A stretch of DNA of 64,000 nt from an uncultured bacterium. GTDB lineage: Bacteria; Patescibacteriota; Minisyncoccia; Phycocordibacterales; DATDWN01. A program made the translations under genes and the position numbers. How positions within the stretch are numbered: position 1 is the first letter of the stretch; every line of letters starts with the position of its first letter. The stretch spans positions 82,582 through 146,581 of the forward strand of contig CAVSGX010000004.1 of the NCBI GenBank assembly GCA_963727715.1, read 5' to 3'. The notes below the pieces were generated by a model that was not told where the DNA came from, ran no database searches, and was given only the letters and a program-made list of their open reading frames with translations. This document shows positions 19,869-46,838 of this stretch, piece after piece.

Positions 19869-20284
19869 TTATAGCCTCATATAAAATAAAATCCATTGTT
19901 GGCTCCTCTTTACTTTTAACACATTTCGTCTATAAAAATCAAATTTTTTATAAAAAGAAATCTCTCGCTCAGCCGAAGCTAAACGAGAGGTAAGAATGTT
20001 TCGAGACCGCAATCTAATTAATGCAATACCCGATGACACAAAACTAGAAAGCCAAAATATAGGCCACAAATTAGTCCAATGATCAATTTAACCCAACTGC
20101 CCACTGTCCAGTGGCCAATTAGTTTGTCAATGACCGCATAAACTATCAACAACAAAGACAACGCAAAGAAAAACTTGTTGTTGTTGTAAAGACGCGCCAA
20201 AAAGTTCATGGCCCTAGATTCCCATTTGAATCCGAACACTTGGTATGATTTGTATATGAAAAAAATTCTCAAAAGTTTTCGCAT
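19869..20284 (-). pseudogene. Possible small membrane-protein gene disrupted or extended by the adjacent IS30 insertion (two overlapping minus-strand ORFs in different frames). Weak call.
   Basis: ORFs 20018-20284 and 19869-20069 overlap. The 5' ~75 nt of the upper ORF lies inside the putative IS30 left end. Confidence 0.2.
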
Positions 20285-21339
20285 CTTTCCAAAAGCGACA
20301 GGAATGAAATCAAGATTTTGTTGGACAAAAAATATTCACAGAGAGACATTGCTCTGTCCTTAGGCAGAAGCAACTCAACCATTTCGGAAGAAATCAAGCT
20401 TGGCTCGGTTAGAAGCAAATATGATCCGCTCAAAGCTCACCACAAAGCATATGTCAGACGGTGGCAGTCCAAATACCAAGCGATGAAAATAGTGGAAGAT
20501 ACAGAACTGAGAAATTTTGTGGAGAAAAAACTTTTGAAAGACGATTCACCGGTCAATATTTCAGGCAGAATCAAGAAGCATGAAAAATATCTGACAAACA
20601 TTTCCAAAAACAGCATATACAGATACATCGAAAGCCTGTATGGCAGAAGAATTGAAAATCACAGGAACAAAAGAAAACAGAGGAGAAAAAATTGCAGACC
20701 AAAGTCGGAAAAGCTCAAAGACAGAGTTTTCATCGCCAAAAGACCTAAATATATAGCCACTAGAAAAAGAATTGGTGATGCTGAAGCTGATTTCATTGTT
20801 TCCGGCAAAAGTGGCAAAGGAATATTGCTTGTTGTTGCAGACCGAAAGTCTAGGACTCCATTTTTGGAGAAAATACTTCCAACCACCATTACTGAAGTTG
20901 AAAAGGGGTTTTTGAAAATCAAAGAGAGATTTCCTGAACTGAAAACTTTGACTTTGGACAACGACATTCTTTTCAGGCATCATGTGAGACTTGAAAAACT
21001 TTTGAATATCAAAATATATTTTTGCAACCCGTACCACTCTTGGGAAAAAGGCACTGTTGAAAAAGTGAACCGAGAGATACGAAAAGACATTCCGAAAGGC
21101 AGCAACATTTCCAAATATTCCAGGCAATTCATCTGTTCGATTGAAGAGAAACTTCAAAACAAAATATACAAATGTTTGAACTACCACACCCCTTTTGAAG
21201 TCTTGAACAAGCACAGAAAAAGAAAAAACACCTCTGACTCCAATTAGTCAGGGTGTTCGGTTTGAGGGGGGTTCGCAGGTGCTACCTCCACTTGTCATTA
21301 TACACCTTTTAAATTTAAAGTCAAGTGGATTTTGAGGCC
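20210..21339 (+). mobile_element. IS30-family insertion sequence, copy A. Ends are approximate; putative imperfect terminal inverted repeats ggccctagattcc..cacttg / caagtggattttgaggcc.
   Basis: Encodes the IS30-type DDE transposase (see CDS 20256-21247). Size ~1.1 kb, typical for IS30. Confidence 0.5.
20256..21247 (+). CDS. IS30-family transposase, apparently frameshifted at the N-terminus. ATG 20256 is followed by an A7 run; the HTH continues in the -1 frame, and the ORF track starts at TTG 20318.
   Basis: The C-terminus LTLDNDILFRHHVRLEKLLNIKIYFCNPYHSWEKGTVEKVNREIRKDIPKG is colinear with the second IS30 transposase (36871-37815). The in-frame upstream sequence FSHLSKSDRNEIKILL aligns with FKHLSYEERVLISAL of copy B but has no in-frame ATG. 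Confidence 0.7.
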
Positions 21340-21364
21340 AAAATAGGCTATATTTTAGGCAATT

Positions 21365-21946
21365 ATGTCACAACTTGAATACGATGAAATAAAGGAGAGA
21401 AAATACGTTGTCTTAGATGGCGAGCCGTGGGAGGTGCTGACTTCACATGTTTTTCGCAAGCAACAAAGAAAGCCGGTCAACGCGGTCAAATTGAAAAACC
21501 TCAAAAGCGGTAAAGTGACCGAGCGATCTTTTCATGTCTCCGAAAAAGCTGAGGAAGCCGAGATTGAAAATCGCGATGTGAAATATTTGTATGAAAACCG
21601 TGGCGAGTATTGGTTCTGTGAGCCAGATGATCCGTCAAAAAGATTTGAAATTGATTCTGATCTTATCGGACAGGAAATAAAATTCATCAAAACAAATTCC
21701 ATTTTGGCCGGACTTTACTTTGACGATGAAATCATCGGCGTGAAGTTTCCTATAAAAGTTGATCTCAAAGTTACCGAAGCCCACGACGCGGTCAAAGGCA
21801 ACACGGCCCAAGGTGGGACAAAACAGGTGGTAGTTGAAACTGGAGCAATCGTGAACGTCCCAATGTTTATAAAACAAGGTGAGATAATCCGCATCAACAC
21901 CGAAACCGGCGACTACGCCGAACGTGTCGGCGGAGCAAATTTCTAA
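21365..21946 (+). CDS. efp: Translation elongation factor P.
   Basis: KLKNLKSGKVTERSF...GNTAQGGTKQVVVETGAIVNVPMFIKQGEIIRINTETGDYAERV matches the EF-P KOW/OB domains. Confidence 0.85.
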   Translation: MSQLEYDEIKERKYVVLDGEPWEVLTSHVFRKQQRKPVNAVKLKNLKSGKVTERSFHVSEKAEEAEIENRDVKYLYENRGEYWFCEPDDPSKRFEIDSDLIGQEIKFIKTNSILAGLYFDDEIIGVKFPIKVDLKVTEAHDAVKGNTAQGGTKQVVVETGAIVNVPMFIKQGEIIRINTETGDYAERVGGANF

Positions 21947-21976
21947 AAATTGACTGGGTACGAAAAAAATGCATAA

Positions 21977-22321
21977 TTGATGGCAGAGGAAATAATGTCA
22001 ACCCAATGTGGGCCATTACAAAATGATTTGATGAGCAACGCTTGTAGAGTTGCTGTTTTATTAGAAGATTTTGGAGATTGGCAGGTTGGAACAATGTCGC
22101 GAAGAGTGTGTCCTTTAAAAAAAGGAGAGGTTGTACTTTATTTAATAGAATCGGATGAAGTAGACAGGAAAGGAAATCCTAAAAGGGTTTTGGCACTAAA
22201 GGCGTCAAAAGTACCATTTGTTGATGTCAATACCACTCCTGAAAAATTGCACTCCGAGTTGCTCACAATGATTAAAGAAATAGGAATTCCTATCTCATTC
22301 AACAGTTTGAACAACGACTAA
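21977..22321 (+). CDS. Hypothetical protein (114 aa).
   Basis: ORF followed directly by an intrinsic terminator. No recognisable motifs. Confidence 0.35.
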   Translation: MMAEEIMSTQCGPLQNDLMSNACRVAVLLEDFGDWQVGTMSRRVCPLKKGEVVLYLIESDEVDRKGNPKRVLALKASKVPFVDVNTTPEKLHSELLTMIKEIGIPISFNSLNND

Positions 22322-22347
22322 AAACCCCAAAAGGGTTTTGTTTTTTA
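22321..22347. terminator. Bidirectional rho-independent terminator between the 114-aa ORF (+) and rpsR (-).
   Basis: aaaaccc-caaaa-gggtttt hairpin with A-run before and T-run after. Confidence 0.7.
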
Positions 22348-22366
22348 TTAAAAAACAAGTTTACGA

Positions 22367-22573
22367 CTATCTAGAAACATAAGGAAGTAATCCCATGAAG
22401 CGAGCTCTTTTGACTGCTGTTGCGAGCAAGCGCTGATACTTTGAAGTCACACCTGTGCGCTTGTGGGAGATGATGCGAGCATGTGGGTTAAGAAACTTTT
22501 TCAAAAGTTCCACATCCTTGTAGTCGATGTATTTTATGTTGTTTTGGGTGAAGTAACACTGTTTGTTTGTCAT
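22367..22573 (-). CDS. rpsR: Ribosomal protein S18.
   Basis: CYFTQNNIKYIDYKDVELLKKFLNPHARIISHKRTGVTSKYQRLLATAVKRARFMGLLPY. Confidence 0.92.
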   Translation of the reverse strand: MTNKQCYFTQNNIKYIDYKDVELLKKFLNPHARIISHKRTGVTSKYQRLLATAVKRARFMGLLPYVSR

Positions 22574-22733
22574 GTCTTTTTTAAGATTAAAGTTTATTTT
22601 GTAACTGTTTTTTCTGAGGATTTTTGTTGAATTTCAAGGCGGATGAGAAAAATAATTTGAGCAATATAGTAATATTGTGAAAATTATTTTACCGAAATCC
22701 AACGCAGAAATTCGGCAAAAATACCAGAAAAAA

Positions 22734-23186
22734 CTAGAAAGGAATGTCCTCGGGGTTTATCTCTTCTTCCGGATATTCAATGGTATCCAAAGCCTTTTTG
22801 TCGTCTTCGTGGACCGGAGGCGTTGCTGTACCAGCAGACTGAACAAATGGCGCTCCACTAGGTTTGGGACCGAATTGAATGCGGTCGGCGATGATTTCGG
22901 TGCGATATTTTTTCACTCCACTCGCGTCGTCCCAACTTCGAGTCTGCATTCGGCCTTCTACCAAAATGGAACTGCCCTTCTTCATATACTGCCCAACAAT
23001 TTCGGCTTGACGACCGAAAACGACGACATTGTGATAATCGGTGTTTTCTTGTTTGACGCCGTTTTTGTCTTTCCAAACACGATTGGTGGCCACCGAGAAA
23101 CTAGCCACTCGAACGCCGGACGGTAAACTTTTAAGCTCCGGATCGCGAGTCAGATTGCCTATGATCATTGCTTTGTTTAAGTACAT
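22734..23186 (-). CDS. ssb: Single-stranded DNA-binding protein.
   Basis: OB-fold MYLNKAMIIGNLTRDPEL...; acidic C-terminal tail ending DIPF. Confidence 0.92.
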   Translation of the reverse strand: MYLNKAMIIGNLTRDPELKSLPSGVRVASFSVATNRVWKDKNGVKQENTDYHNVVVFGRQAEIVGQYMKKGSSILVEGRMQTRSWDDASGVKKYRTEIIADRIQFGPKPSGAPFVQSAGTATPPVHEDDKKALDTIEYPEEEINPEDIPF

Positions 23187-23203
23187 AATATTTAAATTAA
23201 ATA

Positions 23204-23692: not shown

Positions 23693-23737
23693 AGGGACAG
23701 ACTAACACAAAAATAATTTTCAGGCAAATACCTAGAC

Positions 23738-24022
23738 TTGCATTATTCTGCAAGATGTGTAGTATTAATTTCGGAGTCACTCATGGTAATTGAAATCCGG
23801 CCAGATATTTATGCGACAAAAAATGGTCCCCAAATCTATTTAGTAGGGACCGAGGAAGAAATCCAGCGAGCTCACGAGATATTTGATAAACGACAAATAA
23901 AGTCTCAAGATAAATTTGAACATGTAGCTTTTTTCGGGATTATTGAATCTCTAATGGGGATTGGCAAAACCGTAGAGATCTATAGTGGCAGTCCAGTCGC
24001 CATGGATCTCAAGGTAAAATAA
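23738..24022 (+). CDS. Hypothetical small protein.
   Basis: ORF only. Confidence 0.25.
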   Translation: MHYSARCVVLISESLMVIEIRPDIYATKNGPQIYLVGTEEEIQRAHEIFDKRQIKSQDKFEHVAFFGIIESLMGIGKTVEIYSGSPVAMDLKVK

Positions 24023-24099
24023 ATTGTGTTAAGCCATCTGTAAGAATACAGGTGGTTTTTGTTTTTGTAAAAGAAAAAGTGCCGGTTGCCCGAACACCT

Positions 24100-24327: not shown

Positions 24328-24347
24328 GCAATCCTACCTCACTAGAT

Positions 24348-25202
24348 TTATTTAGTCAATTTGAAATTTCTCACTGCATTTTTCACCAAAGTTTTTTTGA
24401 CCAAGTCGAGATTCTCACCGCGGATGCGGGCAATGGCTGAGACGACTTCTGGAACGTAGAGTGGAGAGTTGCGTTTGCCACGATATGGCGCCGGCGCGAC
24501 AAACGGCGCATCTGTTTCAGACATTATCATTTCAATCGGCGCGTAGCGAATATATTCATTATATTCGCTGGTAAAAGTGACAACGCCAGCGAAAGAAACA
24601 GTAAAGCCAATATTCAAAAATCTTTTCAAAACTTCCAAACCCCCGACAAAAAAGTGCGCGTTGCCATGAAGTTTTTCACCGACGGTTTTAGTATGATGTT
24701 CTAGAATTTCCAGAGCGTCGAAATACGCATCAAAATTTATTTTATCTGACGGACGGATGTGAAGCATCAAAGGCTTCCCGACAAGAAGTGACAGTTCAAT
24801 TTGTTTTTCAAAAATTTCTTTTTGGGCTTTTTTTATTTTCTCCGCGTCTTCAGTTAGACGGAAATAATCCAGTCCGCACTCGCCGATAGCCACGACTTTT
24901 GGATTTTTGGCCAGTTCGGAAATTCTCTCGTCAAATCCACCTGGTAAATTTTCGGGGTGTTGGCCAACACAGGCAAAAATATTTTCGTGCTTTTCAGCAA
25001 GCTCAATTTCTTTTTTTGAAGTATCAAAATCAACACCGACGGAAATGGTGCCGATTTTACTTTTCTTCATTCCTGAAATTATTTCTTCCCTGTCCGCGTT
25101 GTAATCAGGAAATGACAAGTGTGAGTGTATATCAAAATATTCAAACATTTTAATCTTTTCGCAAAAAGAGCGGTTTTTCTGGAGATTTGTTTTCTTTAAC
25201 AA
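24348..25202 (-). CDS. TatD-family metal-dependent DNase/hydrolase.
   Basis: FDIHSHL...VVAIGECGLDYFR...LMLHIR are TatD signature segments. Confidence 0.85.
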   Translation of the reverse strand: MLKKTNLQKNRSFCEKIKMFEYFDIHSHLSFPDYNADREEIISGMKKSKIGTISVGVDFDTSKKEIELAEKHENIFACVGQHPENLPGGFDERISELAKNPKVVAIGECGLDYFRLTEDAEKIKKAQKEIFEKQIELSLLVGKPLMLHIRPSDKINFDAYFDALEILEHHTKTVGEKLHGNAHFFVGGLEVLKRFLNIGFTVSFAGVVTFTSEYNEYIRYAPIEMIMSETDAPFVAPAPYRGKRNSPLYVPEVVSAIARIRGENLDLVKKTLVKNAVRNFKLTK

Positions 25203-26608
25203 GTTTTTTTATTTTTTCAGATGTTTTTGGCATTATTGGATTTAGCATTTTGGCAACAGAATACAATCTGACAATCAATTCCGTTATCATTTTTTGTCCG
25301 GACTCTTTGTTGGTCTTCACTACTTTGAACGGTTGATTTTCCTGAATGAATTTATCCATCTCGGTAATTTCAGTCCAAATAAAATCGCAAGCTTTGGAAA
25401 TTTCAAATTGATCGATCAAGTCAAAAAATTTTTGTGGGATTGATTCTTCTGGAATTTTTATTGGTTTATCTAAATTATTTTCTGCCATTTTCATCACCCG
25501 CGAAACTAAGTTGCCGAGACCATTAGCTAGATTGGCATTGTAGGCCTCTTTGAATTTTTCCATTGTGAAAATGCCATCTTCAAAAGGAGGAATTTCTCTG
25601 ACCATGAAATAACGTAGTGGATCAGCCCCATATTCGGCCACCACTTCATAAGGATCGACGGTATTGCCAAGACTCTTGCTCATTTTGACACCACCTTCGC
25701 CGGTGATAAAACCATCAATTACAATTTGTTTGGACGGCGTAAGTCCCGCGGACTTGAGCATGGCTTGCCACATAGCCGACTGTTGGCGCAGATTGTCCTT
25801 GCCTGCATACTGAACCACCCCGCCGGAATTTTTCCACCATTTTTCAAATTTTTCCGGATCACTCGGCCAACCGATAGCCGAAATGTAATTGACCAGAGCG
25901 TCAAACCAAACATACATGACATGATTGGAATCGTTTGGCACGGGCACACCCCACGGCATTTTTTCTTTCAAACGAGAGATACTGAAATCTTCCAAACCCC
26001 TTTCCACAAATTTTTCTATTTCATATTGTCGAAATTGCTGGAAAAACAAATTTTGGATTTTCTTTGTACAAATCCAAAAGATATTTTTGATATTTGGAAA
26101 ATTTAAAAAAATAATTTTCTTCTTCGCGGATTTCGATTTGGCGATTTGGGTGCAGTGGGCATTTTCCATCCATCAAGTCCGATTCGGTTTTTGGCAACTC
26201 ACAACCAGTGCAATATTTTATTTTGTAATTTTTTTTGTAAATGTCTCCAGCTTCAAAACATTTTTGCCAAAAGGCTTGAGCTGATTTAATATGATGCTCG
26301 TCTGTTGTGCGAATAAAATTATATTCTACACCGGAAACATTTGAAGCAAGATCTAAAAGTTTAGCCAAGCCTTTGAATTTTTCAACGGAAGTATCAACAT
26401 ATTCTTGTGGTGTTTTGTCTTCATTTACGGCATTTTCATATATTTTGGCTCCGTGTTCATCCGTACCAGTATTGAAAAAAACCTCAAAACCCTGAAGTTG
26501 CTTGCTTCGGGCGATAATGTCAGCCCGAATGATTTCCATGGCAAAACCGATGTGAGGATCAGAATTCACATACGGCAAAGTCGTGGTGATGTAAAAAGTT
26601 TTTTCCAT
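25150..26608 (-). CDS. metG: Methionyl-tRNA synthetase, split into two overlapping ORFs (26021-26608 and 25150-26169) by a 1-nt frameshift near 26036-26050.
   Basis: The N-terminal part has the HIGH-region equivalent (PYVNSDPHIGF) and a Zn-knuckle CTGC..C. The C-terminal part has KMSKS and the anticodon-binding domain. The frames join cleanly at ...LYKENPKF / QQFRQYEIEKFVERGLEDFSISR. Confidence 0.85.
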
Positions 26609-29839: not shown

Positions 29840-31226
29840 TTAAATTTTAGATTTCACGAAATTGACCAGTTCAGCAATTGGCATTCTGGTTTGTTCGCCT
29901 GTGTCGCGGTCGCGGACAGTCACGCCATTGTTTTTTTCAATCGTTTCAAAATCAACGGTCACACAAAACGGCGTGCCGATTTCGTCTTGTCTGCGGTAGC
30001 GTTTGCCGATGTTGCCGTTGTCGTCAAACTCGCATTGAAATTCTTTACGCAACATCTGAAAAACTTCGCGCGCTTTGGAGACAAGTTCCGGTTTGTTTTT
30101 CAAGAGCGGAAATACTGCAACTTTGACGGGAGCCAATTTTGGTGATAAACGAAGCACAATACGTTTCTCCCCCCCAAGTTCATCCTCGTCATATGCATCA
30201 AGCAAAACAATAAGAGACAATCTGCCCATACCCATCGAGGTCTCAAGTATCCACGGGATATATTTTTCTCCAGTCTCTTGATCGACATAATTAAGATCTG
30301 TTCCAGAAGATTTCATATGTTGAGTGAGATCATAATCGGAGCGGTCATGAATACCCATAAGTTCGTCGAACCCCCATGGAAATTTATATTCGATATCCCA
30401 CGCATCTTTTGCGTAAAAGACCAGATTTTCATGCTGATGCCATTTCAGATGATCTTTTTTGACACCAAGTGAAAGTAGCCAGTCCCATTGTTCGTGCTTG
30501 ATAAACTCAAATGCGTCCTTGTTCTCATTCGGCCTGACAAACAACTGTGTATCTGCCTGTTCCATTTCGCGCACTCTGAAAAGAAAATTGCGCGGGGATA
30601 TCTCATTACGAAAAGCTTTACCTATTTGAGCGACACCAAAAGGAATTTTGGGGTGCATTGAATCAACAATATTTTTGTAATCAAGATAAATACCTTGACA
30701 AGCCTCACCCGGCAAATACACCGTGTCCAATCCTTCAGAAGTGAAATCACCTAAATTGCTTTTCACCAAAAGATTAAACTTGCGAACTTTAGAAAAATCT
30801 TTGGCCCCGCATTTTTCACAAGTTATTTTGTCGCGATTTTCGTCAAAAATTTCGTTTAACTTTTTTTCATCCATCTTTTCGTCAGCGTTTATACCAATCG
30901 CGTTTAAAACCTTATCAACTCTGATGCGAGTGTTGCATTTTTTGCATTCAGCTAAGGGGTCGGCAAATCCGGTGGTATGTCCACTGGCATCCCAAACACG
31001 CGGGTGTTTGAACATACCGGCATCCAGCCCGTAATAATTATCTTTCTGATAAACATTGGCCTTCCACCATTCCTGTTTCAAATTATTTAAGAAGTTCTAC
31101 CCCGCGTGGTCCAAAGTCGTAGATCCCAGCCAATCCCCCGTAAATTTCCGATCCGGCAAAAATAAAACCACGCCTTTTACACAAGGACACAATTTTCTCC
31201 ATCAAATCTTTTTTTTGTTCTGCCAT
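29840..31226 (-). CDS. glyQS: Glycyl-tRNA synthetase (class II, alpha2 type), with an apparent 1-nt frameshift near 31085. The N-terminal 48 codons (ATG 31226) are in another frame.
   Basis: The upstream frame encodes [47 protein letters not shown] and the main ORF continues (L)[10 protein letters not shown]. Joined, they give the canonical GlyRS N-terminus. Confidence 0.85.
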
Positions 31227-31252: not shown

Positions 31253-33250
31253 TTATTTCACAACTCTTTCATCACCACTTTGAAAACCCGGGTCTGAGTA
31301 ATGGGTGGTCACATCTCCGGCTGAAGCGTCAACTTCGTGCTCTACATAAGTGTCGGTGGCCGATACGTTTGATGAGGGCAGAAGATCAATTGGCGATCCG
31401 ATTTCGGTCAGACTTGGGGTCAGACCGACCTGGAAAGAGACGCTTCTTGGTGAGTAGGTAAAGCCGGTGCCGGCAGAAACATTCCCAACTAACCAAGTAA
31501 TGAGGCGCGAGTCCGGGTTGTAGGAAATGCGTTCACTTGCCGGAGAAGTTTGGTTTCCCCAAACAAGACCAACTGGCAAAGTGGCTGTGACCGTCGCGCC
31601 GGAAAGATCATTGGAAGTGTTGGTCAGCGTCCATGTGATAGTGTAGGTTGATTCGTTGTTGGCTTTCGGCGGAATCGGTCCAGTGTTTTGAAAAGGCCCG
31701 ACCAGACGATAAGATTGGGCGGATAAGTTGAGATTGGAAAGGAATTTAAAAGTCATATTTTGAGTAGAAGAAATGTCGGACGCCGATAATCCTGTTCGAC
31801 TGCCGGACATGACGACCGATATGTCAATGTGTGGGTTTTCAATATTCTGGATTTGCGACCGGTTGGAAATTGGAGAAAGCGAAAAAGAAACTTGGCCAGA
31901 ATCACCTGGTGAAATTTCCGACAATGATCCCGTGGTGTTTTTGTCCCATAAAATTGAATTGTCTGACGAACTGTAAAATCCCCCGTTGTTAGCATTTACC
32001 TGGGCCGGATCAAAAACATTGCCGGAAAGTTTTACACTGATTTTATTGTTGACGATTTTATCAGGCAAAGTGTTTTGAAAACCTAAAATCAAAGAGACCG
32101 GCTGACCAAGCGAAGTGAATGTTTGGCTGGCATTTGATGAGTTTACAATAGACAAACCAAAAAATGATTTGCGTATGCCGACGGTGGCCAACTGCTCGGA
32201 AAGTGGATTGGTAAAATTCAGTTGGCCGGAAACTTCCGGCACGCCGACGGAAACATCAAAAGACCTGTCCTCCATATCTTGCCCGACTAATGTCCCGGTG
32301 ATGGTCAAATTTTTATTATCGCCGTTTTTAAAATCACCCAAGGACCACATGGCCCCAACCGAACCGGCCTTGGCGTCGGTAGTAGTTGATAAATTTGGAC
32401 TACTGGTGCTGGTGGAAGTGTTGAGATTGTCAGCCAGTGTCAGATTTCTAACAGGTTTTATATTTGAACTTTCATAGGTAAAACCGTAAGGATACTCCAC
32501 TTTGACCAGAGTGCCGGAAATGACAACATTGGAATTGGAGGTCAGGTTGATGGACAGGGTAACCTCCTGTCCAGAATTTACTTCCTGCGGATAAGAAACA
32601 TTCAAAAGTAAAGGTGAAGAGCTTATTGAAACGGCGTAATCTTTCTCTTTGGAAAAAACGGCAGCGGAGCCGACCACGGTGTATTCCAATTTCATAACAA
32701 TGTTTTGAACCGAATCTTTCGGCCCGAATAAAATTGCCCTAATAGACTGATTCTTGACTTGGCCTTTGGCAATACCATTCAGTGAAAATTGATCGCGGGT
32801 AAGAGGGGCGCCACCCCCGCCAGCCACCTGAGCGTTTGGCGGATAAGAAATAGTCAGTTTGACATTTTGCAAATCAACACGATTTTGATTGACCACAGAC
32901 AACCCCAAATCCAATTCTTCGCCGGAAGAGACAGAGCTCGGACCGATAATCTTAATGTCAACATTGTTGGAAGAAATCATATTAAACCCCCCGAAAAATA
33001 TAAAAGCGGCGACACCCAGAGCCAAAATAAAAAATATGACCGAAATCAGGAAAAATTTATTGAAAAATGAATTATTTTTTTGCGACATTTTTTTGTCCGA
33101 AAAATCAAAACCTTTATCATCTCCCCAATCCGGTGGCACAGTATAATCTTGACCCGAAACAGGAGTTCTTTTTTCCTTTGGCACCATATCTTCATTGCGC
33201 GAGTAAAGTGATTGTTTTAGATTTTCCAATCTATCTTTTTTGAAATCCAT
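31253..33250 (-). CDS. Membrane-anchored extracellular Thr/Ser-rich protein (hypothetical). Probable start at Met 33250.
   Basis: Cytoplasmic N-terminus, one TM helix ([24 protein letters not shown]) and a long beta-rich ectodomain. The ORF-track start at 33412 would overlap rplB. Confidence 0.5.
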
Positions 33251-33312
33251 TGCTGAATTATAACACAAAAATTTTTTCAAAAACACCACGAGGGTGGTGT
33301 TTTTGTTTGTTT

Positions 33313-34155
33313 CTATTTTCTTTTGCCAACTTTGCGACGAGAGATGACAAATTTGTTTGAGTATTTTTTCGGTGTGCGAGTTTTTTGACCCTTGCCTGTC
33401 GGTCGGCCCCATGCCGAAACGGCCCGACGGCGACCACGGCCTTGTCTGCCTTCTCCACCGCCGTGCGGGTGATCTACCGGGTTCATGGCTGTGCCACGAA
33501 CGGTCGGGCGAATGCCAAGCCAGCGCGAGCGTCCGGCTTTACCGAGATTGACCAAACGATTTTCTTCATTGGACAAAACGCCGATTGAAGCGAAGCAGGT
33601 TTCTTTGACTCTGTGAATTTCCGAGGACGGCATCTTGAGGTCAACCATCCCGGCATCCTTGGCCACCACTTCCAGATAATTCCCCGCCGAGCGTCCGAAC
33701 TTGGCCCCGCCCTGCGGTTTGACTTCAACATTGTAAACAAAAGTGCCGACATTTATATTGCGCAGAGGCAAGCGATTACCAACTTTTTGTTCGGCCGTCT
33801 CGGAGGTCAAAAACATTTCTCCAATTTTTACACCTTGTGGGATCAGAACATATCTTTTTTCTCCATCTCGATACTGGACCAAACCGATGAAAGCGCTGCG
33901 GTTCGGATCGTATTCAATCGTTTTCAAAGAGTAAGGAATACCTATTTTGTCATATTTAAAATCAACTTCGCGGAAAAGTCTTTTGTGCCCGGCGCCTTTG
34001 TGGCGAGTGGTCACTTTGCCGTGATGGTTTCTACCGACAGCCCGTTTAAATCCACGAGTCAGAGATTTTTCTGGTTTTTGAGTGGTCAAAATATCGCCAA
34101 AAGAAATGGTGGTCATGCCTCTACGCGATTTTGATGTTGGTTTGTATTTTTTCAT
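33313..34155 (-). CDS. rplB: Ribosomal protein L2.
   Basis: …GRNHHGKVTTRHKGAGHKRLFR… and …PHGGGEGR…. Confidence 0.97.
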   Translation of the reverse strand: MKKYKPTSKSRRGMTTISFGDILTTQKPEKSLTRGFKRAVGRNHHGKVTTRHKGAGHKRLFREVDFKYDKIGIPYSLKTIEYDPNRSAFIGLVQYRDGEKRYVLIPQGVKIGEMFLTSETAEQKVGNRLPLRNINVGTFVYNVEVKPQGGAKFGRSAGNYLEVVAKDAGMVDLKMPSSEIHRVKETCFASIGVLSNEENRLVNLGKAGRSRWLGIRPTVRGTAMNPVDHPHGGGEGRQGRGRRRAVSAWGRPTGKGQKTRTPKKYSNKFVISRRKVGKRK

Positions 34156-36326: not shown

Positions 36327-36755
36327 CTAGATTATCTTCACATCTATGTTCACCCCGCTCGGCAGAGACATATTTGTCAGGGCTTCCATGATTTTCGGGT
36401 TCGGATTTAAAATGTCTATCAGTCGCTTATGTATGCGCATCTCAAACTGCTCGCGCGCGTTTTTGAAAATGAAAGACGATCGGCCAACAGTGTATTTCTT
36501 GTTGACAGTCGGCAAAGGTATCGGGCCCAAAACTTTAGCGTCGTAACGTAAAGCCGTGTCAATAATTTGTTTAACGGACAAATCCAAAATCTTGTATTCA
36601 TAAGCCTGCACCCTGATGCGCAGTTTAGAAACCGGCTCGGCTTTGGCTGGAGCTTTGACAGCAGTTTTTCTGACAGCCGGTTTTTTGACTGCAACTTTTT
36701 TCTCAGTCGGTTTCTTTGCAATCATTTTTTTTTCTTTGACTTCTTTTGTAGCCAT
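36327..36755 (-). CDS. rpsJ: Ribosomal protein S10, with a Lys/Ala-rich N-terminal extension. Start 36755 is favoured over the ORF-track 36800 because a TTGACC-17-TAGTAT promoter overlaps 36775-36810.
   Basis: [38 protein letters not shown]...[31 protein letters not shown]. Confidence 0.9.
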
Positions 36756-36829: not shown

Positions 36830-37868
36830 TGTTAGTTAACCTTTGAATTTAGACACTCAGTTAGAAATAATTGAGTGATATGAAAACATTTAAACATTTG
36901 TCATACGAGGAAAGAGTTTTGATTTCAGCTTTGTTCTCCGAGGGTTGGAGTGCAAGGAAAATTGGAAAGAAACTTGGCCGGCACCATTCATGCATTGCCT
37001 ACGAAATGAAAAAGAAAGTGAAAGGTTTGTATGTAGCCAAGAAAGCTCACCACAAAACATACTGGAGGAGATATTTAAGCAAGAAGCAGTGTATGAAAGC
37101 TGCTTTGGACAGAGAACTGTCCAAATTCATTCCGGAGAAATTGAAAGAAGGATGGTCGCCGGAGAGAATATCAGGGTATTTCAAACTGCAAGGAAAAAAC
37201 ATCTCAACTAAAGCGGTGTACAAATTCGTGTATTCCAGATGTTTGGAAAGATATCTGTTTTGGAGAAAACACCACAAGAAAAGTGGTTGGAAAAAGAAAA
37301 GATACGGTAAAGCCATCGATGAGAGAAAATACATTGAAGACAGACCGAAAATGGAGAGATCTGGACACTGGGAGGGAGATTTCATTGTCTCATCTCACAA
37401 CGCTTGTTCATTATTTGTCTTGGTTGACCGATATTCCAGAGATACCATCACTCGCAAAATTCCAAACAGAAAGCACGCAACGGTATTGCGTGCTTTCTTG
37501 GATTCTCTGCGTAATATGCCAGTCAAGACAATTACACTAGACAATGATATCGCATTTAATTGTTGGAGGAAACTGGAAAAACAACTAAAATGTTCGATAT
37601 ATTTCTGTCACCCATATCACTCCTGGGAAAAGGGTTTGGTTGAAAATACAAACAAATGGATCAGGGTGTTTGTTCCAAAGAGAAAAGATTTGAGAGAAGT
37701 CACAGAAGAAGAGCTTCGTTCAATTGAAAAGTTTTTAAACGAAATTCCTCGTCAATGTCTTGGATTTAGGACAGCAAAAGAGGTATTATTAGATTCAATG
37801 AAGTGTCTAAATTGAGGGGTGCGGAAACGTCCTCGCTATAATACAGGTATTACAATTAACTAAAATAC
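36830..37868 (+). mobile_element. IS30-family insertion sequence, copy B, inserted between tuf and rpsJ. Putative terminal inverted repeats ttagttaacctttgaattt / aattaactaaaatact.
   Basis: Carries the transposase at 36871-37815. Ends are approximate. Confidence 0.55.
36871..37815 (+). CDS. IS30-family DDE transposase (intact).
   Basis: N-terminal HTH (LSYEERVLISALFSEGWSARKIGKKLGRHHSCIAYEMKK). DDE core ...HWEGDFIVS...TLDNDIAFNCW...HPYHSWEKGLVENTN. Confidence 0.85.
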   Translation: MSDMKTFKHLSYEERVLISALFSEGWSARKIGKKLGRHHSCIAYEMKKKVKGLYVAKKAHHKTYWRRYLSKKQCMKAALDRELSKFIPEKLKEGWSPERISGYFKLQGKNISTKAVYKFVYSRCLERYLFWRKHHKKSGWKKKRYGKAIDERKYIEDRPKMERSGHWEGDFIVSSHNACSLFVLVDRYSRDTITRKIPNRKHATVLRAFLDSLRNMPVKTITLDNDIAFNCWRKLEKQLKCSIYFCHPYHSWEKGLVENTNKWIRVFVPKRKDLREVTEEELRSIEKFLNEIPRQCLGFRTAKEVLLDSMKCLN

Positions 37869-39553: not shown

Positions 39554-39626
39554 TATCCGCACACTAAGTCTGCCATCGCTTCGCCGTGTTTTGAAAAAAC
39601 ACAATGGCAAACTTAGTGTGCGGATG
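39554..39626. repeat. Palindromic structured element, family 2, copy 2 (~95 nt upstream of tuf).
   Basis: ccgcacactaagtctgccat...atggcaaacttagtgtgcgg with inner gtgttttgaaaaaacac. It differs from copy 1 by paired compensatory substitutions. Confidence 0.8.
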
Positions 39627-39772
39627 AAAACAAAAGTACCGCTAAAACGCGATAATATATATATTATACAAAATCAAAAGTAATGTCAACAAAAAATATA
39701 AAAATCAGCCGCACCTTGTGAGATGCGGCCGTGACCAAATGGTCAAGTGTTAGGGAAAGAACTGGTGCGATG

Positions 39773-40617: not shown

Positions 40618-40619
40618 AA

Positions 40620-41176: not shown

Positions 41177-44100
41177 TTAATTATGTTTTGTCGCCATTAG
41201 GAGTGCGGTCTTAAAACTTTTTTTGGCCAGTTTGAAAGCTCTATCATATACGGTGTCGGCCATCAAAAAGTTGTGGTGAAGTTTTGGATCAAGGTTAAGT
41301 TTCAAACCTTTTTCTGTTAACAAACCTTTGGCAATTTCCTTGCCGTTGAGAAGAGCATGGATTTCGTCCGGATGACCCGGGACACCATGAATGAGACTTA
41401 ATCTGCCATTTTCAAACGCAAAGTTGGTTGTACTCTTTGGGACCGGGATGTTCATTCTGTCTTGAGCTATGACAAAAGCCTCACGAATCGGTGCGCTTTT
41501 TGGTCCATCTTGGAATCTATCGAGTAGTTGCATCCCGCTTGCGCCATTTGGCAATTTGACGGACTGTGCTACCGCTTCACCCTGAACAAAAATTTGTTTT
41601 TGTCCCCCGGCCACTTCAACAACACTCGTATGAAATTTCCCTTCTGCACCATTTGCTGCTTTGACAATGTGATCAAACTCAATGGCACCGGGCGTTTTAG
41701 GTGTGTTGGCTAGATTTTCGCCGACATGAGAAAAATTATGGATGTTGACCGGAGCGTGCGCTAAATCGGTATCAACCGGTTTGGAAAAATCAAGTGGTTT
41801 ATAATTTCCTGACACCTTATACGGTTCTGACACCAAAAATTCATTTTGGGGCTCGGTAACATCGGCAGGTTTCGGCGCCACAATTTCGTGCGGAACTGGC
41901 GCTTTCGGAGCAAACATTTTGTCGGAGTGTAGTGATTCAAAATTGTGCTCGCCTGTGCCAATAATTTCTGTTGGCTTGCCGGCGGCGGTTAGGTGTTCCA
42001 ATTTCAAATGACCTTCAGCGTCAACAGCCAAAGCTTCGCCTTTCAGCCCCATCGCGCTCGTGCCATGTTTGGCATCCCAAAAGCCATACTCTTGTGCCAG
42101 TTTGGTGCTCGGAGTTTCCACAAAATGTTTAACACCAGCCGGCATTTTACCCGCGTCAGGATATTGCGCTTTCAGTTTGTCTTTCATATCGTCAAATGTC
42201 TGGATAAATCCGCGGGAAGAAAGTTTGACTTCAACCACATTGGTCGCCTCCGGCATCTTCGGTCCAAGCGGAGGAGTAGCAACTTTGGGAGCGGGCGGCT
42301 GAGTGACGACTTCAGATACTTTCGGCGCAGGTGGTGTTTCGGCGGGCATTGTTAGTTTGACGGTTGGTGGCGCTTCGGTTAGAACAGGAGGTTTTGCTAC
42401 GGTTGGAGTTTCAGCCGGCATAGCTGGCTTTGCCGTGACAACTTCGGCGTGCGTTGTCCCGGTTTTTGGTGTGTTTTCAGAGTGGAACATTTTGTAAAAG
42501 AAACCATGTTGTCCAGATTGGACAGCGCCCGGAACATTGCCAAATTGATTGGCCATGGTTAAATCAGTGGCTATATTGACCCCGGCGCCGACAGCCACCA
42601 TAACCGCAGCCTTTTTTAAAATGCCACGCTTTTTTCTGTTTTCTTCTTTCTCTTTCAATCCCATCAACTCTTTTTCTTTGATTTCATAATTGTCTTCAGT
42701 CAATCCTTCAGCATATCTTCTCAAATTTTTTTGTTTCTTCCTTTCCAAACTCCATTTGGTGATTGAATCCACACCTTTGCCTGCCGCTTGACCAGCCAAA
42801 GCGCCGCTAAGAGATCTCGCCCCTCTGTAAGCCAAAGTTGTGCCGATACCAACAGTAGCCACAGTGCCGAGAGTCATACCAAGGCCAGTCATAACAGCCG
42901 TAGTCAAAGCGATTCTGGCCGGCAAAGGCAACTTGGCCCATTTTTCAAATGATTTGCCAATAATTCCCTTCTCCAAAGGCGGGACATTCTCGGCGATTCT
43001 TTTTTGCAAAACTTCCCATTCCTTTTCGGCTTGAGTAATAGCTCTACACTTGAAAATTGCGGATGCTTTTTCTTCATTTGACAAATTTTCATCCAAACCA
43101 AGATCATTTATTTCTTTTTCAATCCCGGGCATCGAAAAAATTTCTTCCATCTTTTTTTTCTTGGATTGGATATAGACGGCTTCGGCCGCTTCTAGTCGAA
43201 CTTTGACTTCTGTCATGTCTTGCGGAGTAACCTTATCAAATCTGTGAAATATTTCGTCTATTTTTTCTTCTAGACCAACTTTGGACGCCAAACCCCTGGT
43301 GGTTCTGTGGATAAAACTTCTGTTATTCATTATGTCCTCAGTTGTCTCACCTAAGCCTACACTGTTGGCCAAATCACTGGCTTGTTTATAAACCCATTTT
43401 TTCTTTTCCCGATTTTTATTTTTAAACTCCACCAAAACACTGGCATAAGTACCTCGCGCCTCGGCCAATTCCATGTCCACTTCGGAAAGTGCTTCCGCCA
43501 CTAGTGGAGCATTTTCAACCGCCCCAGACAGCACCGGCTCAGGTGGTAATGGACCAGCTACTGGTATTACTTCCGGACTGGCAGAAGGTTGCGGGGTTAC
43601 TTCCTCTTCTTGCCCAGGTTGCTGAAATTCTTCTTCATATTCGGCAAACTCATCAATACCAAAAATACCAAACAGTTCTCTCCTTTCGGCTTTACTTAGG
43701 TGACCTTTCTCAAGGTCAAAATCAATTTCTCTTTCCAATCCTTTTTTCTTGGATTCATACGGCTCAGAACTTCTGGAGGATTCTTCTATGATTGTAATGA
43801 GATTCCCTAAATTGGAATGATCTTCACTCTTGGACAAGGTTACCAAAAATTCAACGGCCTTTTCATATCTCTCTGATTCAGGATTTTCTTTTTGTTCTTC
43901 CGTTGTTTCAAAATTTTTACCGGCAGTTTTCACTGATGTTAACGGTTCTGTCGGTTCTACTTCCGTTTCCGAAGCTGGAATAACAGGTGGAAAAGGTAGG
44001 AAATCTTTGTTTGACACACTCGGAGAATTATCTTCAACTGGGGCTGACTCTTCTTCTGCTGTTATTATCGGCTCAACAATATGTTCAGAAGTTATTGGTT

Positions 44101-44482
44101 GATTTCCATTTAAGGCTTCAATTATTTTTTCATACCCCTTTATTTTTTCAACAAAACTGGACGCCCTTTCTTTTTTTTCTTCTTCATTATAATCGTTATT
44201 AGACAAAATAAATTCCAAAGTCCTTCTATCATTTGCAAGTCTTTCTTCAAAAAATTTTACTGGGTTAGATTCTAATGTAGATATTTCCCCCCGACAAAAT
44301 TCAACCATTCTTTCATCGTTTTTTGCACCAAAATGTACTAGTTGTTCTTTGTATCTTTGAAGTTCTTCATTAATACGAACCGTGACAAATTCTGGTCTGT
44401 GTTCCCTAGGATTCATATGATCCTCCAATTCTTGTTTGAGCGCCTTTGGATCTATATTTAAAGCATTTGGAGACTCCATGTT
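41177..44482 (-). CDS. Giant hypothetical protein (~1100 aa): acidic coiled-coil N-terminal half, Pro-rich linkers, two or more TM segments in the middle, C-terminal globular part. The start is uncertain (44482 or 44539).
   Basis: Hydrophobic segments LTTAVMTGLGMTLGTVATVGIGTTLAY and AAVMVAVGAGVNIATDL. Low-complexity PAPK/PPAP repeats. No catalytic motifs recognised. Confidence 0.5.
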   Translation of the reverse strand, partial: NMESPNALNIDPKALKQELEDHMNPREHRPEFVTVRINEELQRYKEQLVHFGAKNDERMVEFCRGEISTLESNPVKFFEERLANDRRTLEFILSNNDYNEEEKKERASSFVEKIKGYEKIIEALNGNQPITSEHIVEPIITAEEESAPVEDNSPSVSNKDFLPFPPVIPASETEVEPTEPLTSVKTAGKNFETTEEQKENPESERYEKAVEFLVTLSKSEDHSNLGNLITIIEESSRSSEPYESKKKGLEREIDFDLEKGHLSKAERRELFGIFGIDEFAEYEEEFQQPGQEEEVTPQPSASPEVIPVAGPLPPEPVLSGAVENAPLVAEALSEVDMELAEARGTYASVLVEFKNKNREKKKWVYKQASDLANSVGLGETTEDIMNNRSFIHRTTRGLASKVGLEEKIDEIFHRFDKVTPQDMTEVKVRLEAAEAVYIQSKKKKMEEIFSMPGIEKEINDLGLDENLSNEEKASAIFKCRAITQAEKEWEVLQKRIAENVPPLEKGIIGKSFEKWAKLPLPARIALTTAVMTGLGMTLGTVATVGIGTTLAYRGARSLSGALAGQAAGKGVDSITKWSLERKKQKNLRRYAEGLTEDNYEIKEKELMGLKEKEENRKKRGILKKAAVMVAVGAGVNIATDLTMANQFGNVPGAVQSGQHGFFYKMFHSENTPKTGTTHAEVVTAKPAMPAETPTVAKPPVLTEAPPTVKLTMPAETPPAPKVSEVVTQPPAPKVATPPLGPKMPEATNVVEVKLSSRGFIQTFDDMKDKLKAQYPDAGKMPAGVKHFVETPSTKLAQEYGFWDAKHGTSAMGLKGEALAVDAEGHLKLEHLTAAGKPTEIIGTGEHNFESLHSDKMFAPKAPVPHEIVAPKPADVTEPQNEFLVSEPYKVSGNYKPLDFSKPVDTDLAHAPVNIHNFSHVGENLANTPKTPGAIEFDHIVKAANGAEGKFHTSVVEVAGGQKQIFVQGEAVAQSVKLPNGASGMQLLDRFQDGPKSAPIREAFVIAQDRMNIPVPKSTTNFAFENGRLSLIHGVPGHPDEIHALLNGKEIAKGLLTEKGLKLNLDPKLHHNFLMADTVYDRAFKLAKKSFKTALLMATKHN

Positions 44483-44678
44483 GCTTTCATTATATTCCCC
44501 TATAAAAATATTCGCAACAAAAAAGATCCTATTTTGCATTTCTCGAAAAGCAATCTGTCTAGCCCTGCTGGGCTAGTGAACTTCTCGTCGTCCAAGAAAA
44601 CAATCCACGGATTACCGTGGTTGTTTTCTAAACTCCTGCGAAAGGCTTTTCTTGAAACACAAAAAGGATTTGCGTGAA

Positions 44679-46838
44679 TTATTTTCTTGCCTCAATTATC
44701 GCTTTCTCAACATTCGGCGGGACGACTTCATAGTGGTCAAATTCCATCATCATTGAACCGCGACCTTGGGTCATGGAGCGGATGTCTGTGGTGTAGCCGA
44801 ACATTTCGGAAAGCGGCACTTTAGCGTGAACGACACGAAGCTGACCGCGTTCATCCATTCCTTCTATTTGCCCGCGCTTGCCGGAAAGCGAGCCGGTAAT
44901 GTCACCCATAAACTGCTCCGGCATGACAACTTCCACTTTCATAATAGGTTCCAGAATGACCGGGCGAGCGCGCTTGGCGGCATCTTGGAAAGCCTGCGAA
45001 GCGGCGATTTTGTAAGCGATTTCGGAAGAGTCAACATCGTGATACGAACCGTATGTCAGCTCGCAGGAAACATTGACCATCGGATAGCCGGCGACAATCC
45101 CGCGACCCATCGCTTCGCGCACACCTTTCTCCACAGCCGGAATAAATTCCTGCGGGATGACACCGCCTTTGATGGAATCAATGAATTCAAAGTCATCGTA
45201 GCGTTTGACATTTTTCGGAATTTTTTTGCCCTCGGCAATCGGCTCCATCGGTTTCAAATTTAATTTGACGTGACCATACTGACCTTTGCCACCGGTTTGT
45301 TTGATGTATTTGTGTTCGGCTTCGGCCGTGCCGAGAATGGTTTCGCGATATGCCACTTGCGGTTTGCCGACATTGGCTTCCACCGAAAATTCTCGCTTCA
45401 TTCTTTCAACCATAATTTCCAAGTGGAGCTCGCCCATGCCGGAAATGATAGTCTCACCGGTTTCGGTATTACTCGAAATAACAAATGTGGGGTCCTCGTC
45501 GGAAAGTTTTTTCAAAGCCAAACCCATTTTTTCCTGGTCGGCTTTTGTTTTCGGTTCAATGCGCAAAGAAACGACAGGGGCCACGAATTTGATCGGTTCA
45601 AGGATGATCGGCTTGTCCTCGTCGCAGAGCGTGTGTGAAGTTTTGGCTGATCTTTAATCCGACAGCCGCGGCGATTTCGCCGGCGAAAACTTTTTTGACT
45701 TCTTCGCGCTTGTCGGCTTGCAGACGGACGATGCGACCGAGACGTTCTTTTTCGCCTGTTGTTGAATTGTAAATATATGTGCCCGCCTCAATCGTCCCGG
45801 AATAGACGCGGAAGAAAGTCAGCTGACCGACGAACGGATCGTTTTGCAGTTTGAAAGCCAGAGCGGCAAAGGGCTCTTCGTCTGAAGCGTTGCGATAAAT
45901 ATCCTCACCGGTTTTCGGGTCTGTTCCGTGTACCGGCGGAATATCAGAGGTGATGGTAAATAGTCCACCACTCCGTCGAGAACGAGCTGCACGCCTTTGT
46001 TTTTCAGCGCCGAACCGGCGTAAACAGGAACGATTTTGACGGCGATGCAAGCTTTGCGCAAAGTGGTTTTGAGTTCTGGGACAGACGGCTCGCTTCCTTC
46101 CAGATATTCATGCATCAGTTTGTCATCTTCGGAAACAATTTTTTCCACCAGTTCATCGCGATATTTTTTTGCTTCTTCCAAATATTCTGCCGGCATTTCC
46201 GCCTCGCGAACGTTGATACCCATATTACCTTCAAAGTAGTAGGCTTTCATATCCAGCAAATCAATCACACCTTCAAATTTATCTTCCAATCCCATCGGGA
46301 TTTGCATTCGCACTGCGTTTTTAGTCAGACGATCCAAAATGGAAGCGTATGATCTTTCAAAACTCGCGCCTGTGCGGTCCAGCTTGTTGATGAAGCAGAT
46401 GCGTGGCACGTTGCCGTCGTCGGCATAGCGCCAGTTGGTTTCGGATTGTGGTTCCACACCGGCCACACCGTCGAAAACCACCACCGCGCCGTCGAGCACA
46501 CGAAGCGAGCGTTTGACCTCGGCTGTAAAATCAATGTGCCCGGGAGTGTCAATAATATTGAAACGATAAAGATTTTCATGCAGAGGTTTGCCGTCCGCGC
46601 CACGAGCTTTGTATGTCGGGTTCCAGAAACAAGTGATGGCTGCCGCCGTGATAGTGATGCCGCGTTCCCTCTCCTGCTCCATCCAGTCGGTCACCGTTTC
46701 GCCCTCGTGCACTTCGCCGATTTTGTGGGTCATGCCCGTGTAGAAAAGCACGCGCTCCGAAGTGGTCGTCTTTCCTGCGTCAATATGGGCAATAATGCCG
46801 AAATTTCTGACTTTCTCTAATGGGTAATCTCTGTTCAT
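44679..46838 (-). CDS. fusA: Elongation factor G, fragmented into three ORFs (45819-46838, 45598-46050, 44679-45584) by two apparent 1-nt frameshifts (~45945 and ~45642).
   Basis: N-terminal [18 protein letters not shown]...DTPGHIDF...NKLDR. Domain [16 protein letters not shown].... Domains III-V ...[27 protein letters not shown].... The frames reconnect at ...VDYLPSPL|DIPPVHG and ...AAAVGLK..|..[14 protein letters not shown]. Confidence 0.9.

Follow-up and report, generated by a model that had tools for sequence, protein, structure and literature searches.

Do one-base frameshifts that lie together on one contig share a cause, or can errors of assembly and a genuine genetic design look alike? 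The question is raised by a stretch of 64,000 nucleotides (hereafter the window) of contig CAVSGX010000004.1, which belongs to a metagenome-derived genome of Patescibacteria (Paceibacteria-like). In this window the reading frame is broken twice in fusA (elongation factor EF-G), once each in metG (methionyl-tRNA synthetase, MetRS) and glyQS (glycyl-tRNA synthetase, GlyRS), and once at the very start of the transposase gene of an insertion sequence (IS) of the IS30 family, here called copy A. A preliminary description had placed most of the five shifts at homopolymers and attributed them to indel errors of the assembly. All five exist and the frames on either side rejoin colinearly, but three of the sites had been mislocated. 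We consider it rather probable that two different phenomena are involved: the four indels in the essential genes would be errors of the assembled consensus, and the frameshift of copy A a genuine design of its clade that needs slippage for the transposase to be made.

Results

An out-of-frame start followed by an A tract in IS30 copy A

The size of copy A and its imperfect terminal inverted repeats (Table 1) fit the IS30 family (1-1.25 kb, imperfect inverted repeats of 20-30 bp). The repaired transposase scores 182 bits with the NCBIfam profile NF033563 for IS30 transposases (cut-off 80), and 204 bits were obtained for the second IS30-type transposase of the window, copy B. A single uninterrupted open reading frame (ORF) read from its own start is a further feature of the family, which copy B displays and copy A does not. 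As the preliminary description had it in every detail, the ATG of copy A is directly followed by seven A residues (A7, 20259-20265) and the transposase is encoded in the -1 frame relative to this ATG. No ATG, GTG or TTG occurs in the transposase frame before position 20315. Addition of one A to the tract yields a protein of 330 amino acids (aa) that begins with MKKNSQKFSHLSKSDRNEI. Residues 7-48 of this protein match the Pfam domain HTH_38 (50 bits), and a complete domain requires translation of the bases that lie between the A run and the first in-frame TTG; the 309-aa ORF starting at this TTG, which is the choice of the gene caller, keeps only profile positions 16-42. Copy B, with its in-frame ATG and no A run, provides an internal contrast. 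It was rejected as a sequence template for copy A, there being no similarity at the DNA level and 39% identity between the proteins. IS30 transposases on plasmids of cultured bacteria, as found by tblastn, are at most 33% identical to that of copy A and are annotated as single ORFs. At the other end of the gene there is a terminator-like hairpin (21232-21253, plus strand; CTCTGACTCCAATTAGTCAGGG with a T-rich tail behind it), which overlaps with the 3′ end of the ORF and also with the inner portion of the right inverted repeat.

An independent assembly is available for comparison, the Logan assembly of run ERR11594402. Five of its contigs cover 27,051 nt of the window; L081 came from a protein search with GlyRS, and the other four from exact matches to rpsG, efp, recA and the IS ORF. 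One of them, L166, reproduces the ATG and the A7 exactly, which argues that the tract of copy A is not an assembly error.

The repaired copy A protein was used to scan metagenome contigs of JGI and ENA, and 80 loci from many unrelated projects were found, with 55-75% aa identity. The transposase frame has no start codon of its own in these loci. Removal of duplicates left 54 distinct 5′ regions, 47 of which fit a pattern composed of a hexamer TAnnnT, a spacer, ATG or GTG and an A run. The distance between hexamer and start codon is exactly 6 nt in 45 of the 47, and the start codon is GTG in one relative and ATG otherwise (26 of 27 aligned relatives). The ATG is out of frame with the transposase ORF in all but one case (46/47). 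Twenty-three of the 47 need one more base, the longest run being A7 in 22 of them, and another 23 need one base fewer, with A8 in 21 of these. Between the ATG and the HTH motif the longest A run measures 7 or 8 nt in 45 of the 47, beginning at most ~15 nt from the ATG; it is 6 nt in one relative, and one is in frame. Divergent loci that do not follow the strict pattern, when read singly, have the same arrangement (e.g. GTG AAC A6/A7 or ATG ATA A7). The transposase ORFs of the relatives are otherwise intact (322-345 codons), and the peptides encoded in the zero frame behind their ATG measure 3-59 codons and are unconserved. With random frames, the chance of finding at most one of the 47 in frame would be P ~1e-7 by our own calculation, which argues that the in-frame state is avoided. 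The single in-frame relative, L140 (A7), is 99.7-99.8% identical over 3.4-4.2 kb to L142 and L146 (A8), which occupy the same genomic context. These loci come from different samples, A7 being found in one and A8 in the two others.

Variation in the 22 codons that follow the tract is found mostly at third positions (entropy of 0.56, 0.42 and 1.17 bits at the first, second and third codon position, respectively). Together with the start of HTH_38 at residue 7, this argues that the stretch right behind the tract is translated in the shifted frame. The frame of the ORF into which the ATG falls differs between the classes (TAT-GAA versus A-TGA), and yet the ATG is conserved, which points to a functional start rather than an accident of coding. 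Within the hexamer the T, the A and the final T are conserved to at least 90%, and the spacer is free to vary. RNAalifold, applied to 27 sequences, predicted no base pairs in the 90 nt downstream of the tract. Judged from these comparisons, an out-of-frame ATG followed by A7 or A8 is the normal design of an IS30 clade from uncultured (Patescibacteria-type) bacteria. The suspicion that the A7 of copy A was miscalled can thus be dropped, since L166 has the same tract and the arrangement is the rule in the clade.

The breaks in fusA, metG and glyQS

Identity between the Logan contigs and the window ranges from 99.93 to 100% per contig over the 27 kb. The five contigs together differ from the window by only two indels, and in each case it is the window that has an extra base. 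One of them breaks glyQS. The other, a sixth indel that had escaped the preliminary description, is intergenic and lies between rpsG and fusA (Table 1). Homopolymer lengths are the same in both assemblies for 43/43 A/T runs of at least 7 nt and for 355/355 runs of at least 5 nt, and this speaks against miscalled homopolymers as the error mode. The Logan assembly, which is k-mer based, breaks at both IS copies. The contig of the window crosses two IS copies and an rRNA gene, and for this reason it was probably assembled from long reads.

The glyQS frameshift had been placed at the AAA-TAA near 31085. Alignment with L081 ruled this site out and located the cause at an extra T, 31093/31092, 7-8 nt before the TAA. 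An intact GlyRS of 461 aa (Logan protein P0001) differs from the repaired window protein by a single residue. The break is consequently an assembly error, or at most a variant that is missing from a near-identical population. The coding strand of glyQS also contains an in-frame A8 (31209-31216, codons 4-6), and an in-frame A9 is found in rpsJ (36725-36733). Both are the same in the two assemblies, which suggests that housekeeping genes of this organism tolerate slippage-prone tracts.

Three-frame translation of fusA showed that the first and third pieces share a common frame and that the middle 98 codons are in another. The gene therefore has one deletion and one insertion, ~294 nt apart. Both sites were fixed by protein alignment with 14 intact relatives and by DNA alignment with L084, an ENA contig (k141) carrying the closest fusA relative found (84% nucleotide identity), which shows exactly two 1-nt gaps relative to the window. 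A shift had been correctly expected near 45945, and it corresponds to the deletion at 45945/45946. There is no homopolymer in its context (CCTCT-GATATT; relatives read CCTCTCGACATT). The second shift had been assigned to the A4 run at 45641-45644, but the alignment excludes this run and puts the insertion 7-10 nt upstream of it, at 45651/45652, where the window reads TTAAAGATCAGCC versus TTGAA-ATCCGCC and the relatives GLK[S/D/E]A[K/L/R]TSH. Intact fusA genes are present in 14/14 GTDB relatives (ORFs of ~714-728 aa), and the 457 C-terminal residues used as a query match EF-G of L084 (P0241) with 94% identity. In the 5′ part of the gene (46094-46695) the window differs from contig L082 by seven single-nucleotide polymorphisms (SNPs) in 600 nt, with none in the neighbouring 10 kb. 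Four of the seven are synonymous and the rest are M215V, A217T and S249R. This cluster indicates local strain heterogeneity or recombination. We also note that CTGAT occurs at both fusA indel sites, which might bring to mind a methylation motif as a source of indels; two sites are too few for this.

For metG, frame 0 is correct through the invariant Pro codon (26041-26039), and MetRS relatives have exactly two codons between this Pro and a conserved Arg (P[E/D][S/F]RQ). The extra base must therefore lie within GCAATTT (26038-26032). The shift had been assigned to the T5/A4 region at 26036-26050, but alignment with relatives ruled out the T5 run. MetRS homologues align across 100% of the repaired protein with up to 82% identity. 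More generally, the repaired EF-G, MetRS and GlyRS are colinear with hundreds of full-length homologues, in agreement with the statement that the frames rejoin into conserved proteins. The claim that most of the shifts sit at homopolymers does not hold for the essential genes, where 4/4 indels are found in runs of at most 3 nt (1-3-nt contexts).

Gene content of the window

The minus strand of the window carries a ribosomal region of the str/S10 type with rpsL, rpsG, fusA, tuf, rpsJ, rplC, rplD, rplW and rplB, as deduced from the ORF map, Pfam and Rfam, and large unknown ORFs are interspersed among its ribosomal-protein genes. Further genes include recA, efp, ftsK, ftsH, recG, the two IS30-family transposase genes and the 5′ half of a 23S rRNA gene. 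When the repaired EF-G was used to search GTDB species genomes, matches came only from Patescibacteria (Kaiserbacteria, Paceibacterota, Minisyncoccia), with at most 79% identity. In the GTDB species representatives metG, glyQS and the IS are absent from all fusA loci found. The ribosomal-protein string is broken by copy B between tuf and rpsJ (36880-37815, plus strand). A 1120-aa ORF without Pfam match (41177-44539, minus strand) separates fusA from tuf, and a 719-aa ORF with a weak DUF11 match (31253-33412, minus strand) separates rplB from glyQS.

The 5′ half of the 23S rRNA gene (1-2513, minus strand; Rfam model positions 1-1523) continues past the left edge of the window and contains large insertions, e.g. 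one of 247 nt. An initial match of the full model (412-2513, model 1-2925, 790 bits) was discarded as a forced global alignment. A tRNA-Ala(TGC)-like sequence (370-446, minus strand; ARAGORN, 44.7 bits with Rfam) lies within the span of the 23S alignment. A tRNA-Ile with the anticodon TAT is encoded at 57036-57110 (minus strand). In bacteria AUA is usually read by a lysidine-modified CAT tRNA and not by a TAT anticodon.

The window also contains several repeats. A 75-nt repeat is present twice (3905-3979 and 39555-39629, 88% identity), each copy forming a long palindrome ATCCGTACACTAAC...GTTAGTGTACGGAT; one copy neighbours a mechanosensitive-channel gene and the other lies just upstream of tuf. 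A 45-nt motif of the sequence TTGACAA.ACCATGCTC...CCTGCGGAGTCTCC.AAAAGGAAA is found at 8009-8053 and 18507-18551 (87% identity), with weaker copies at 3082 and 13540. The copy at 18507 is just upstream of recA, and the motif may be a common promoter or leader element. AT-rich repeats (TTAGAAATTAGATTAATTAGAAATT), both direct and inverted, occur in two intergenic regions 13 kb apart (49038-49101 and 62262-62402). The segment 48965-49849 (884 nt) has no ORF longer than 52 aa. A/T runs of at least 7 nt number 79 in the window, or 78 besides the tract of copy A.

Table 1. Features of the window and their positions. A slash within a peptide marks the site of an indel; contig intervals are written in the orientation in which the contig aligns.
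Feature	Position	Strand	Details
IS30-family copy A	20214..21285	+	~1.07 kb; outer ends approximate; Logan contigs break at 20213/20184
Copy A, terminal inverted repeats (imperfect), core	20229-20239 and 21253-21263		AATCCGAACAC and GTGTTCGGTTT; weaker extension outwards
-10-like hexamer	20244..20249	+	TATGAT, preceded by TGg; last T 7 nt before A of ATG
ATG and A7 tract	20256-20258 and 20259-20265	+	same in L166
Transposase frame of copy A	20249..21247	+	-1 relative to ATG; open from TGA 20246-20248 to stop 21245-21247
Zero-frame ATG product	20256..20363	+	35-codon peptide, unconserved
IS30 copy B transposase	36880..37815	+	in-frame ATG, no A run; 39% identical to copy A
metG, MetRS	25150..26608	-	~485 codons repaired
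metG indel	26032..26038	-	one extra base in GCAATTT, between invariant Pro codon and Arg codon
glyQS, dimeric-type GlyRS	29840..31226	-	461 codons repaired; 100% homologue coverage
glyQS indel	31092/31093	-	extra T; window CTTCTT, L081 CTCTT; sole gap in 9,475 aligned columns
fusA, EF-G	44679..46838	-	719 codons repaired; frame a 46838-45946, frame b 45945-45652, frame a 45650-44679
fusA indel 1	45945/45946	-	one base missing, third position of Leu codon, ...SPL/DIPP...
fusA indel 2	45651/45652	-	one extra base (G or A) after Lys codon of GLK/SAKTSH; context AAAGATCA
Intergenic 1-nt difference	47088-47090	-	rpsG-fusA gap; window GGG, L082 GG
Logan contig L081	36857-27383		99.97% over 9,475 nt; two mismatches and one gap (the glyQS frameshift)
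Logan contig L082	57090-46027		single gap (47090); all seven SNPs fall within the first 750 nt of fusA
Logan contig L083	21320-25063		100%, no differences
Logan contig L165	18513-20213		one mismatch
Logan contig L166	20184-21280		100% over 1,097 nt, including ATG and A7

Discussion

The two indels of fusA and those of metG and glyQS are most likely errors of the assembled consensus and not biology. This was seen directly for glyQS with the help of L081. For fusA and metG we infer it because the cell cannot do without these genes, no relative has them broken and glyQS provides a precedent; the earlier judgement that the three genes are unlikely to be pseudogenes together is in this sense upheld. 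The kind of error is another matter. Homopolymer indels of a long-read or pyrosequencing assembly had been proposed for all five frameshifts including that of the transposase, and such errors would account for one-base breaks in three indispensable genes, for the A7 of the transposase and for the absence of the glyQS break from the independent assembly. However, the A7 is reproduced exactly by that assembly, the frame is off at the same place in 46/47 distinct relatives, which come from unrelated assemblies, the runs at the essential-gene indels do not exceed 3 nt, and the long homopolymers agree throughout (355/355 runs of at least 5 nt). A pure homopolymer-miscall mode is therefore wrong, and we regard this common explanation as very improbable. 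Another origin could be reads of related strains or species that cross-map in conserved genes and so spoil the consensus or the polishing of a probable long-read metagenome assembly. The 4/4 coding indels are concentrated in ~5 kb of highly conserved genes and breaks are absent from ~50 kb of other coding sequence, where ORFs of 1208, 1120, 740, 725, 719 and 645 aa are all intact. Each of the four insertions might also reflect the retention of both alleles of a SNP. The breaks resemble residual consensus or polishing indels of metagenome assemblies in that they are isolated 1-nt indels in conserved ORFs, the one in glyQS being absent from an independent assembly. They differ from them in that the long-homopolymer errors usual for long reads are not seen here, and the sites lie in 1-3-nt contexts of the most conserved genes.

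Some points weigh against consensus errors as the general explanation. No independent contig was obtained over the fusA or metG sites by exact look-ups with tuf, fragments of fusA and metG, tatD and the 1120-aa ORF, and a near-identical intact MetRS or EF-G was not found in the protein collection, the best matches having 82% and 94% identity. The argument that conserved genes are prone to mis-polishing was made post hoc. It is possible that the three fusA and metG sites are real variants in the sampled population. If all of these indels were real mutations of the assembled strain or of a sub-population, as in a decaying lineage or a minority haplotype, this would agree with the otherwise very accurate assembly, the strain-level SNPs in fusA and the lack of independent sequence cover at metG and fusA. 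It would also mean that three indispensable, normally single-copy translation genes are dead together, although all relatives have them intact and the near-identical population of ERR11594402 has an intact glyQS on a Logan contig that is unbroken there. We hold this for improbable. Programmed recoding, such as a prfB-like +1 shift at CTT or -1 slippage, has nothing in its favour beyond the existence of the breaks. The glyQS break is missing from a 99.97% identical contig, both fusA breaks are missing from the closest relative found (94% aa identity over the region queried) and 14 others, all MetRS relatives are continuous, and the true positions have no slippery motifs. The breaks being unconserved, we dismissed programmed frameshifting in the essential genes and give it practically no credence.

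How would the copy A transposase then be made? Programmed slippage on the A run, by RNA polymerase or by the ribosome, is the answer to which the sequences most likely point. The -10 box would set the start of transcription at the A of the ATG and produce a leaderless mRNA beginning with AUG-A7/8. Such an mRNA is predicted because the final T of the hexamer is 7 nt from the A of the ATG, which is +1 in standard sigma-70 numbering, and because there is no room for a Shine-Dalgarno sequence. The tract would then occupy positions +4 to +10/11 of the transcript, where the RNA-DNA hybrid just reaches its full length, and the nascent RNA could slip on the template T tract. A single mechanism would cover both classes of elements, full-length transposase appearing only after one A has been added (A7 elements such as copy A) or lost (A8 elements), and the effect would be to hold transposase output low. 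Slippage by RNA polymerase in the initially transcribed region would be the likeliest agent, with slippage of tRNA-Lys on the ribosome as the alternative. In its strictest form, this proposal says that the clade can make transposase solely through obligatory RNA-polymerase slippage on A7/A8 at +4 to +11 of a leaderless mRNA, so that the frame would be set during promoter escape; we consider this possible, if doubtful. Several observations weigh against slippage by RNA polymerase. A simple scan upstream of the gene found no -35 element but only the -10 with its TGg, and a full sigma-70 promoter with -35 and -10 was discarded as a candidate. The tracts are short: A9 runs are the main basis for bacterial transcriptional slippage (PMC1088944) and most validated sites measure 9 nt, some 8 nt, against 7 nt in copy A and 8 nt in the other class, although 8 A's are apparently productive in some organisms (PMC1088944). 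The other A/T runs of at least 7 nt that we examined, e.g. the A8 of glyQS, are read through in frame and no other gene of the window is broken, from which slippage efficiency on such runs would appear modest. Finally, the comparison of L140 with L142 and L146 shows that tract length varies also at the DNA level.

Two alternatives have to be set against polymerase slippage. Recoding could be translational, a P-site tRNA-Lys slipping by -1 (A7) or +1 (A8) on the tract at codons 2-4. The tract consists of AAA Lys codons, on which the tRNA can re-pair perfectly after a move into either adjacent frame, AAA-AAA is known from E. coli to favour -1 ribosomal frameshifting (PMC1851650), and both offset classes would be compatible with such a shift. 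On the other hand, the zero frame offers no canonical X XXY YYZ heptamer (ATG AAA AAA ATT; G AAA AAA), no conserved structure is found within 90 nt downstream and there is no functional upstream orfA. The classes would also require opposite directions, and for a +1 shift the A site usually has to hold a slow codon or a stop, neither of which is conserved here. Ribosomal slippage thus seems unlikely to us, without being far-fetched. The A tract could also be a phase-variation switch at the DNA level, most copies being OFF and rare replication slippage turning them ON, with no recoding at all. The different tract lengths of L140 and its near-identical relatives are what such a switch would produce, and homopolymer switches are common in small-genome bacteria (PMC2824730, with mycoplasma examples). 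But ON alleles amount to only 1/47, each subclade has a single OFF length (A7 in elements that A8 would turn ON, A8 in those that A7 would turn ON), and A6 and A9 are not seen in the two main classes. Moreover, lineages that have diverged to 55-75% aa identity have remained OFF with their ORFs undamaged, so that OFF copies must be able to propagate. We see little chance for an explanation by phase variation.

Slippage on A runs has precedents in IS elements. Baranov et al. (2005, PMC1088944) described programmed transcriptional slippage at A9/A8 runs in elements from Deinococcus and Nostoc, among others, and +1 slippage has been described for IS1447 of the IS3 family (PMC6211511); an IS630-family element of Roseiflexus is cited as an example in PMC12709180. 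Common to these systems and the copy A clade are a conserved A run (7-8 nt in the clade) at the junction of two transposase reading frames, an out-of-frame organisation kept among diverged homologues and a presumed role in limiting transposase. The copy A clade differs in belonging to the IS30 family and in having the tract at codons 2-4, right after the start, instead of at an orfA/orfB junction, with no OrfA protein. Its mRNA is predicted to be leaderless with the tract at +4 to +10/11, and sister elements would need opposite corrections (+1 A or -1 A). The -1 frameshifting of IS1 and IS3, at a heptamer of the A AAA AAG type that fuses orfA to orfB, likewise involves an A-rich slippery sequence in a transposase gene and low full-length output. 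However, an in-frame heptamer, an orfA product and a downstream stimulator are all missing from the copy A clade, half of which needs +1 (23 versus 23). Of what the preliminary description had to say on the transposase, the remark that the A7 could support slippage is thus best supported, but the slippage would not be of the IS1/IS3 kind.

A further parallel is the reiterative transcription of the pyrBI type, which shares with the proposed mechanism nascent-RNA slippage on A/T tracts in the initially transcribed region and a dependence on the -10 element and its spacing from the transcription start site. Genome-wide work in E. coli found that A/T tracts, the -10 element and the spacer to the start site determine reiterative initiation (Sun et al. 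2025, PMC12709180). The known cases leave reading frames unaltered (PMC12709180); their tracts lie at +1 to +3, and the bases are added to an untranslated 5′ end. The tract of copy A would instead follow a 5′-terminal AUG, and a change in its length would reset the frame.

In endosymbionts, frameshifted genes are reportedly rescued by polymerase infidelity at poly(A) tracts, as is said to have been found by Tamas and co-workers in 2008. Such rescue is also the subject of Wernegreen et al. 2010, according to passages in PMC3711429 and PMC12709180 that cite it. There too genes under purifying selection are out of frame at an A tract, but these are scattered host genes of AT-rich reduced genomes, and copy A represents a fixed clade-wide design at the start of a mobile-element gene. 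IS30 is not mentioned in Baranov et al. 2005 (PMC1088944), in the GeneTack survey or in the first 300,000 of the ~430,000 characters of the recoding review of Atkins et al. Our literature search gave no paper that pairs IS30 with transcriptional slippage and no report of recoding in IS30. We therefore class the copy A site with the programmed slippage of IS elements, as a putative case that is new in its family and in its position, and the breaks of the essential genes with ordinary artefacts of an unusual, non-homopolymer signature.

For annotation this means that fusA, metG and glyQS should be repaired and not called pseudogenes. Homopolymer-aware polishing is not expected to mend them because the errors lie elsewhere, clustered in conserved genes. 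The transposase gene of copy A should neither be repaired nor be flagged as a pseudogene; by falling back on the TTG start, gene callers shorten the transposases of the clade, whose DNA-binding domain is then incomplete. An IS30 start codon that is followed by A7 or A8 and lies one base out of frame recurs in dozens of independent metagenome contigs. If slippage is indeed how these elements are read, programmed slippage would extend to a further major IS family, and this would be the first recoding mechanism described for IS30. The elements would also provide a natural system where slippage a few bases past a 5′-terminal AUG sets the frame. Should RNA polymerase be the agent, the clade would offer the first example of a leaderless ORF whose frame is decided by reiterative or early transcription slippage. 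Transposase output would then depend on initiation kinetics and nucleotide pools, as with pyrBI-type regulation, and transposition would be tied to the physiological state of the cell.

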